Origin: Escherichia coli
GTDB taxonomy: Bacteria; Pseudomonadota; Gammaproteobacteria; Enterobacterales; Enterobacteriaceae
Length of the DNA stretch: 551 nt
NCBI RefSeq assembly: GCF_003334785.1
Contig: NZ_QOWV01000084.1
Direction: 5' to 3' (one strand)
Shown: positions 82 through 464 of the stretch, in pieces
How the letters are laid out: each line of letters opens with the position of its first letter
How positions within the stretch are numbered: the first letter of the stretch is position 1
The notes under the pieces: model-generated
Told to the model about the DNA's origin: nothing
The model's database searches: none
What the model saw: only the letters and a program-made list of their open reading frames with translations
Translations under genes and position numbers: made by a program

Positions 82-96
82 AGGTCGGCAATAGTT

Positions 97-132
97 GTAG
101 GCCTGATAAGACGCGACAGCGTCGCATCAGGC
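97..132 (-). repeat. REP/PU, Z-type-like, copy 2
   Basis: Identical in sequence to the PU at 5-40, offset by 92 bp. Confidence 0.85.
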
Positions 133-139
133 ATTGATT

Positions 140-173
140 GCCGGATGCGGCACAAGTGCCTTATCCGGCCTAC
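140..173 (+). repeat. REP/PU, Y-type-like, copy 2
   Basis: Identical in sequence to the PU at 48-81, offset by 92 bp. Confidence 0.85.
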
Positions 174-188
174 AGGTCGGCAACAGTT

Positions 189-224
189 GTAGGCCTGATA
201 AGACGCGACAGCGTCGCATCAGGC
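189..224 (-). repeat. REP/PU, Z-type-like, copy 3
   Basis: Identical in sequence to the PU at 5-40, offset by 184 bp. Confidence 0.85.
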
Positions 225-231
225 ATTGATT

Positions 232-265
232 GCCGGATGCGGCACAAGTGCCTTATCCGGCCTAC
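232..265 (+). repeat. REP/PU, Y-type-like, copy 3
   Basis: Identical in sequence to the PU at 48-81, offset by 184 bp. Confidence 0.85.
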
Positions 266-280
266 AGGTCGGCAATAGTT

Positions 281-316
281 GTAGGCCTGATAAGACGCGA
301 CAGCGTCGCATCAGGC
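281..316 (-). repeat. REP/PU, Z-type-like, copy 4
   Basis: Identical in sequence to the PU at 5-40, offset by 276 bp. Confidence 0.85.
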
Positions 317-323
317 ATTGATT

Positions 324-357
324 GCCGGATGCGGCACAAGTGCCTTATCCGGCCTAC
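324..357 (+). repeat. REP/PU, Y-type-like, copy 4
   Basis: Identical in sequence to the PU at 48-81, offset by 276 bp. Confidence 0.85.
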
Positions 358-372
358 AGGTCGGCAACAGTT

Positions 373-408
373 GTAGGCCTGATAAGACGCGACAGCGTCG
401 CATCAGGC
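373..408 (-). repeat. REP/PU, Z-type-like, copy 5
   Basis: Identical in sequence to the PU at 5-40, offset by 368 bp. Confidence 0.85.
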
Positions 409-415
409 ATTGATT

Positions 416-449
416 GCCGGATGCGGCACAAGTGCCTTATCCGGCCTAC
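416..449 (+). repeat. REP/PU, Y-type-like, copy 5
   Basis: Identical in sequence to the PU at 48-81, offset by 368 bp. Confidence 0.85.
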
Positions 450-464
450 AGGTCGGCAATAGTT

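Follow-up and report, generated by a model that had tools for sequence, protein, structure and literature searches.

The whole 551-nucleotide stretch of Escherichia coli DNA analysed here, referred to as the window, is probably an allele of the BIME-2 array between rhaA and rhaD from a strain with a K-12-like rha haplotype, which has grown by even-step events from two adjacent units, a and b, differing in their last base. The window is occupied from end to end by one tandem array (1-551, + strand), in which cutting at every 92nd base yields five full units of 92 bp and a sixth of 91 bp lacking only its final base. TRF accordingly reports a single array with a period of 92, 6.0 copies and 99% matches. 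Column 92 is the sole variable column of the unit table, with T at 92, C at 184, T at 276, C at 368 and T at 460, resulting in five visible T/C states, the sixth variable site lying one base past the window end. Comparison of the window with itself gives no mismatch at a shift of 184 bp and four mismatches at a shift of 92 bp, exactly at the variable sites. Unit table and shift comparison thereby both agree with the original prediction, which had described a single variable column with alternating T and C. Copies one 184-bp period apart are closer to each other than adjacent monomers, the difference residing in one column only, and on this basis the window divides into three higher-order copies at 1-184 (unit a with T at 92 and unit b with C at 184), 185-368 and 369-551 (all + strand).

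Each unit reads, in order, AGTT, an inverted Z2 starting with GTAG, the linker ATTGATT, a Y ending with CTAC, and AGGTCGGCAA followed by T or C. The Z2-type palindromic unit is a 36-nt imperfect palindrome with its GTAG end first, found in the sequence at 5-40, within the naRNA4 match at 8-78, and repeated at 97-132, 189-224, 281-316, 373-408 and 465-500 (+ strand). The Y-type palindromic unit, comprising 34 nt with the CTAC end last, is supported by the sequence and by the Rfam match and is located at 48-81, 140-173, 232-265, 324-357, 416-449 and 508-541 (+ strand). Assignment of 5-40 to Z2 uses the published consensus in addition to the match to the Rfam naRNA4 model, and the unit calls in general likewise follow the published Y and Z2 consensus sequences. 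The 7-bp linker ATTGATT connects the non-GTAG ends of Z2 and Y, at 41-47 (+ strand) inside the naRNA4 match and at every 92 bp from there. The 15-bp linker, composed of AGGTCGGCAA, T or C, and AGTT, extends from the CTAC of Y to the GTAG of the next Z2. It is found at 82-96 with the variable base at 92, where AGGTCGGCAA plus T/C make up the last unit positions (82-92), and in the unit table again at 174-188 (C at 184), 266-280 (T at 276), 358-372 (C at 368) and 450-464 (T at 460), with partial copies at 1-4 and 542-551 (all + strand).

For the naRNA units of REP325, Qian et al. 2015 (PMC4550694) describe the arrangement Y-l-Z2, with an unnamed 'U motif' as the linker between units, l being placed between the non-GTAG ends and U between CTAC and GTAG. 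In the window ATTGATT corresponds to l in this layout, and the variable base sits in the other linker, i.e. the 15-bp one. The original prediction had located it in a tail-to-tail linker. This label finds no support under the naming of Qian et al. 2015 and Nunvar et al. 2010, since the base is on the CTAC-GTAG side and Nunvar et al. 2010 call the GTAG end the 'head', by which the variable linker would be head-to-head. Because Ton-Hoang et al. 2012 (PMC3333891) and Qian et al. 2015 disagree on linker identity, wording the positions of the S and s/l/r linkers differently, we name the variable linker physically, as the one between CTAC and GTAG, and assign no motif letter. The suggestion that T and C correspond to distinct linker motif types was rejected: the variants differ by one base at a constant length of 15 bp and are one-base variants of a single motif. 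In the RNA structure predicted for two units, the variable base is part of an unpaired linker stretch separating one Y from the Z2 that follows; a structural role for it was rejected for this reason, and this analysis revealed no sign of the T/C base having a function of its own.

A megablast search against 5,426 complete E. coli genomes detected related arrays in 5,213 of them. All full-length matches that we fetched fall in the rhaA-rhaD spacer and share the strand of the two genes; the window is therefore the BIME-2 array, built from inverted Z2 and Y, of this E. coli spacer. From the orientation of the orthologous loci, the + strand of the window (1-551) is the sense strand of the rhaBAD operon. 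At all rha loci the first Y unit lies 5 nt past the rhaA stop codon (TAA ACACT GCCGG). REPs within 15 nt of a stop codon are said to lower the expression of the upstream gene, reportedly in work by Liang, Rudd and Deutscher from 2015. The affiliation with BIME-2 agrees with the Y and Z2 units alternating in orientation, as seen in the sequence and by the Rfam Y-l-Z2 model scoring each unit with 76.6 bits, and with the presence of short linkers of 7 and 15 bp, BIME-1 being defined by a long L motif that carries an IHF site. Inspecting the 7- and 15-bp linkers by eye for WATCAANNNNTTR gave no match. An extragenic tandem array with strain-variable copy number is found in the orthologues, in which the spacer ranges from 82 to 1002 bp, the window itself being flankless. 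BIME-2 elements show strong DNA gyrase binding and cleavage according to literature as cited in Nunvar et al. 2010.

We coded 25 rhaA-rhaD arrays of complete genomes as strings of unit types, using the first unit of the window (T at column 92) as reference. Unit a is identical to the reference, b has C at column 92, e carries 74C>A, c carries 62A>G, d carries 62A>G and 65T>C, f is shortened to 89 bp by a 3-bp deletion in the Z2 loop, and g and i have a Y like the head (first) Y unit of the array together with C at column 92. K-12 MG1655, with a spacer of 450 bp containing C, a b e and a tail, served as reference for the spacer length. On flanks identical to those of K-12, i.e. with 0 differences in 1000 bp, strain 116333 has a spacer of 82 bp with no interior units (-368 bp), MIN12 has 358 bp with a b (-92 bp), AR_0369 has 542 bp with a b b e (+92 bp), resulting in a CC pair and the pattern CTCCT, and strain 219 has 818 bp with a b e g a b e (+368 bp). 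The array of strain 219 equals the K-12 array with a 368-bp block duplicated, g being a recombinant of the head and tail Y units. An allele of +184 bp on the K-12 haplotype was not found among the arrays sampled.

Other lineages contain runs of T. We read a a a a c in FG31-1, a a c a c in 23CRST025 and a b b a c c d d a in 100181. Three duplications of a single unit, each separate from the others, account for the difference of Combat11I9 (f b b e c c d d a) from 23CRST011 (f b e c d a). A 184-bp alternation marked at columns 62 and 65, in the loop of the Y unit, is seen in Res13-Sevr-PER07-33 (i d a d a d a) and in PSJ-29 (a d a d a c), where the linker column is T throughout; this alternation is independent of that in the window. 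A spread sample of 60 genomes gave spacers of 82, 174, 176, 184, 241, 266, 276, 358, 368 and 450 bp, and the arrays reach nine full units in complete genomes. T and C are both present at column 92 in every flank group sampled, and the T/C difference is an old dimorphism between units, which predates the amplification seen in the window and did not arise as a mutation inside the array. The locus shows further variation: the 89-bp unit is the first full unit in three strains from Hong Kong, China and Ecuador; strain 1070/13 has a 241-bp spacer devoid of a Z2/Y array, where a single Y unit precedes about 190 bp of another, GC-rich palindromic repeat; and strain 7_33_80A carries approximately 1.3 kb of extra DNA between rhaA and rhaD, including a gene annotated as fucO.

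According to these comparisons 184 bp is not the true period of the locus, contrary to the original prediction, which had itself named copy-number changes in steps of 92 bp between strains as evidence to the contrary. Such steps are found at the level of the locus, with MIN12 (-92) and AR_0369 (+92) both having K-12-identical flanks, and the full set of changes on these flanks, -368, -92, +92 and +368, does not follow steps of 184 bp. Changes of one, two and four units all occur at rhaA-rhaD, those of one unit also on the alternating K-12 haplotype. For the window itself, the idea of an amplified 184-bp dimer already carrying the T/C difference is supported, as a and b alternate in genomes with K-12 flanks (a b e in K-12; a b a in J53 and CUVET19-1426). 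An odd-step duplication or deletion in an alternating array creates TT or CC, and therefore the window implies even steps only, within that run; the CC pair of AR_0369 is what an odd step of +92 is predicted to leave in an alternating string. The (ab)x3 arrangement is thus most simply explained by even-step duplications, of 184 or 368 bp, of a pre-existing dimer. A general bias towards even steps is not demonstrated, given one-unit steps on the same haplotype and the small sample. Judged from the arrays compared, two-unit periodicity has arisen more than once at rhaA-rhaD.

The six-unit allele is absent among the 5,426 complete E. coli genomes, in which the best full-length match has 99.3% identity. 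The exact T-unit-C-unit-T pattern gave no match in the GTDB species representatives and none in the JGI metagenome contigs. A single unit with either linker base likewise had no match in the GTDB representatives and matched seven metagenome contigs, all of them carrying short arrays or being cut by the contig end. In the plasmid collection the exact allele is absent and matches of only 85-92%, to other BIMEs, were obtained. The 211-base T-unit-C-unit-T pattern (T-b-a) is present exactly in five complete genomes, including J53, CUVET19-1426 and PG20180172. The two of the five that were read, J53-p1-pV-hybrid-1 and CUVET19-1426, have a 450-bp spacer with head-C, a(T) b(C) a(T) and tail, their interior units being identical to those of the window, and in no genome fetched does an exact match to the window exceed 345 nt. 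The warning attached to the original prediction, that copy number should be doubted and mis-assembly considered, therefore stands, the exact allele being in none of the collections searched.

Several RefSeq records labelled complete mishandle the rhaA-rhaD array, and unit counts can be trusted only from spanning reads. The TOP10 record initially appeared as the best match (99.7%) and was discarded: the match is a 275-bp collapsed piece (3001-3276 of the fetched stretch; record labelled complete) that belongs to a junk tail made up of fragments of tRNA, Rhs and RtT and does not represent the real locus. The piece carries T,T, the expectation inferred from the K-12 parent being T,C,T. The XL10-gold match, a collapsed unit of 104 bp (2490-2593 of the fetched stretch) in a record labelled complete with a similar tail of repeat fragments, was excluded as the same kind of artefact. 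The RefSeq tails of TOP10 and XL10-gold both consist of collapsed repeat fragments, comprising tRNA, Rhs, RtT sRNA and pieces of the rhaA-rhaD array, and Stbl4 shows a similar multi-piece match near the record end. In the 4.64-Mb record VOFL01000126.1, the stored stretch ends at 2160 with ...GGTCGGCAA, one base short of a variable site, just as the window does; the stop may reflect an ambiguity code at that base.

Our data suggest a model in which an ancestral array of the type head-C, a(T) b(C) a(T), tail, with a and b already being neighbours, would have given rise to (ab)x3 as sister copies, at an even-unit offset, exchanged out of register or slipped during replication. Two events of 184 bp or one of 368 bp would be sufficient, and the source spacer would then have had about 818 bp and seven full units. 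Either RecA-dependent unequal exchange or RecA-independent slippage could operate; in view of the instability of tandem repeats in E. coli, misaligned exchange or replication slippage is the likely mechanism. Once established, an alternating array would be free of mismatches in the 184-bp register and would have one mismatch per 92 bp in the 92-bp register, which may bias later events to even steps. The locus, the anatomy of the units, the sharing of a and b with other genomes and the occurrence of one-, two- and four-unit steps are observed directly, and from there we infer the even-step history of the window allele and its mechanism. Absence of the exact allele from the searched collections, a window devoid of unique flanks, and one-unit steps on the same haplotype weigh against this explanation.

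Three other explanations can be set against it. In one, the 92-bp monomer was amplified first, and column 92 came to alternate afterwards, either through T-to-C changes that arose independently or through patchy gene conversion. Strict alternation at five independent sites has a chance probability of p = 0.05-0.06 given the T/C frequencies in the 25 orthologous arrays, and of 0.036 given the frequency of adjacent switches in the same sample, so that as independent draws the pattern, at p of about 0.05, is not overwhelming and the chance test taken alone is weak evidence. Mutation after amplification, however, requires at least two identical transitions in the same column of non-adjacent, alternate units with the rest of the 551 bp unchanged, for which we estimate a probability of about 1e-3, and the same a and b units already alternate in related genomes. 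The rejection of random mutation after monomer amplification in the original prediction is sound because of this low estimate, and we consider the monomer-first scenario close to negligible. The second explanation retains the dimer and replaces exchange or slippage by transposase activity: TnpA-REP/RAYT (yafM) would excise a single-stranded circle of two BIMEs (184 nt), whose rolling-circle copying would create (ab)n at a single stroke. Ton-Hoang et al. 2012 (PMC3333891) showed in vitro cleavage and strand exchange at the BIME iREP and at C|T sites in the linker and proposed models of rolling-circle amplification; the window's three copies of the dimer do not differ in sequence, and reading the linker on the bottom strand shows a C|T dinucleotide immediately ahead of the variable base. 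The published models, however, add single BIME units (PMC3333891), which would result in identical neighbours rather than alternation, and activity in vivo is not demonstrated according to the same authors. Nothing in the present data separates this route from unequal exchange, and overall we regard it as highly improbable.

According to the third explanation, the real array is a short one of the K-12 type (C a b a or C a b e) and the six units were created by an assembler walk or a mis-polished consensus, in which case the copy number, and possibly the phase, would not be biological. In line with this, complete genomes, GTDB representatives, JGI metagenomes and plasmids yielded no exact match, and the window is the entire 551-base source, starting just after one variable site and stopping just before another with no unique flanks. 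The stray 275-bp piece of TOP10 (3 x 92 - 1) has the same start and end phase as the window, the piece stored in VOFL01000126.1 also ends with ...GGCAA, and XL10-gold has a collapsed piece of the rhaA-rhaD array in its junk tail. Short-read assemblers, however, normally collapse perfect tandem repeats and do not expand them, complete genomes contain as many as nine full units at this locus, and (ab)n is exactly what even-step duplication of a documented real array is expected to generate. We therefore judge an assembly origin to be rather unlikely, and favour the window being a K-12-like rhaA-rhaD allele expanded by even steps.

A more far-reaching possibility is that BIME-2 arrays behave like miniature satellites, with alternation locking expansion into the 184-bp register via mismatch-sensitive recombination or RAYT copying of a two-BIME circle, higher-order periods recurring independently, and the T/C base perhaps tuning RAYT cleavage. 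It would fit with the (ab)n of the window, with (da)n as found in two further lineages and with the block of 368 bp duplicated in strain 219; we nevertheless hold it to be very unlikely. Like satellite higher-order repeats, e.g. primate alpha satellite shaped by unequal crossing-over, the window has a multi-monomer period, with 0 versus 4 mismatches at the two shifts. In contrast to them, its higher-order unit is marked by a single base and is only three copies long, and single-unit steps also occur at rhaA-rhaD on identical flanks.

The significance of these observations is small beyond bookkeeping. What is added is a clean allelic series at one locus, with changes of one, two or four units even on identical flanks, and together with the recurrent two-unit periodicity this multi-step series is a modest addition. 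On a small scale it may be useful as a natural test bed for the expansion of bacterial tandem repeats by slippage, unequal exchange or the REP-associated transposase.

The best-studied relative is REP325, on whose Y-l-Z2 units the Rfam naRNA4 model is built. The window passes the gathering score of this family (RF02564; 59.5) six times on the - strand, at 8-78, 100-170, 192-262, 284-354, 376-446 and 468-538, with 76.6 bits each time, while the + strand with 53.2 bits stays below the threshold; transcription of the rha operon corresponds to this opposite, weaker-scoring orientation of the match (53.2 bits). The window shares with REP325/naRNA4 (RF02564; Qian et al. 2015, PMC4550694) the Y-linker-Z2 unit design and an array of six units. 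It differs in its locus, rhaA-rhaD instead of yjdM-yjdN, and in having 92-bp units with linkers of 7 and 15 bp instead of 100-bp units with linkers of 13 and 17 bp. REP325/naRNA4 gives rise to a discrete HU-binding RNA condensing the nucleoid; the resemblance of the window to it is one predicted by a sequence and structure model. In REP325 of MG1655 (5743-6399 of the fetched stretch), units 2 and 4, each of 100 bp, match one another exactly and enclose a unit 3 that has three differences, which weakly hints at a two-unit pattern in the best-studied BIME-2 array as well.

BIME-2 arrays and their copy-number polymorphism are already known, and the window is an ordinary variant of this known element. 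A literature search for unit-order steps or higher-order periodicity in BIMEs, and for the rhaA-rhaD REPs, returned no description of either. As defined for BIME-2 (Gilson 1991, Bachellier 1994; summarised in Ton-Hoang et al. 2012, PMC3333891), the window has Y and Z2 in alternating orientation, short linkers and intergenic tandem copies, and the rhaA-rhaD array has the strain-dependent copy number at one locus and the near identity of units within a locus described for BIME-2 (PMC3333891). There is no structural difference between BIME-2 and the rhaA-rhaD array, the added detail being the order of unit variants, which shows duplication and deletion steps of one, two and four units.
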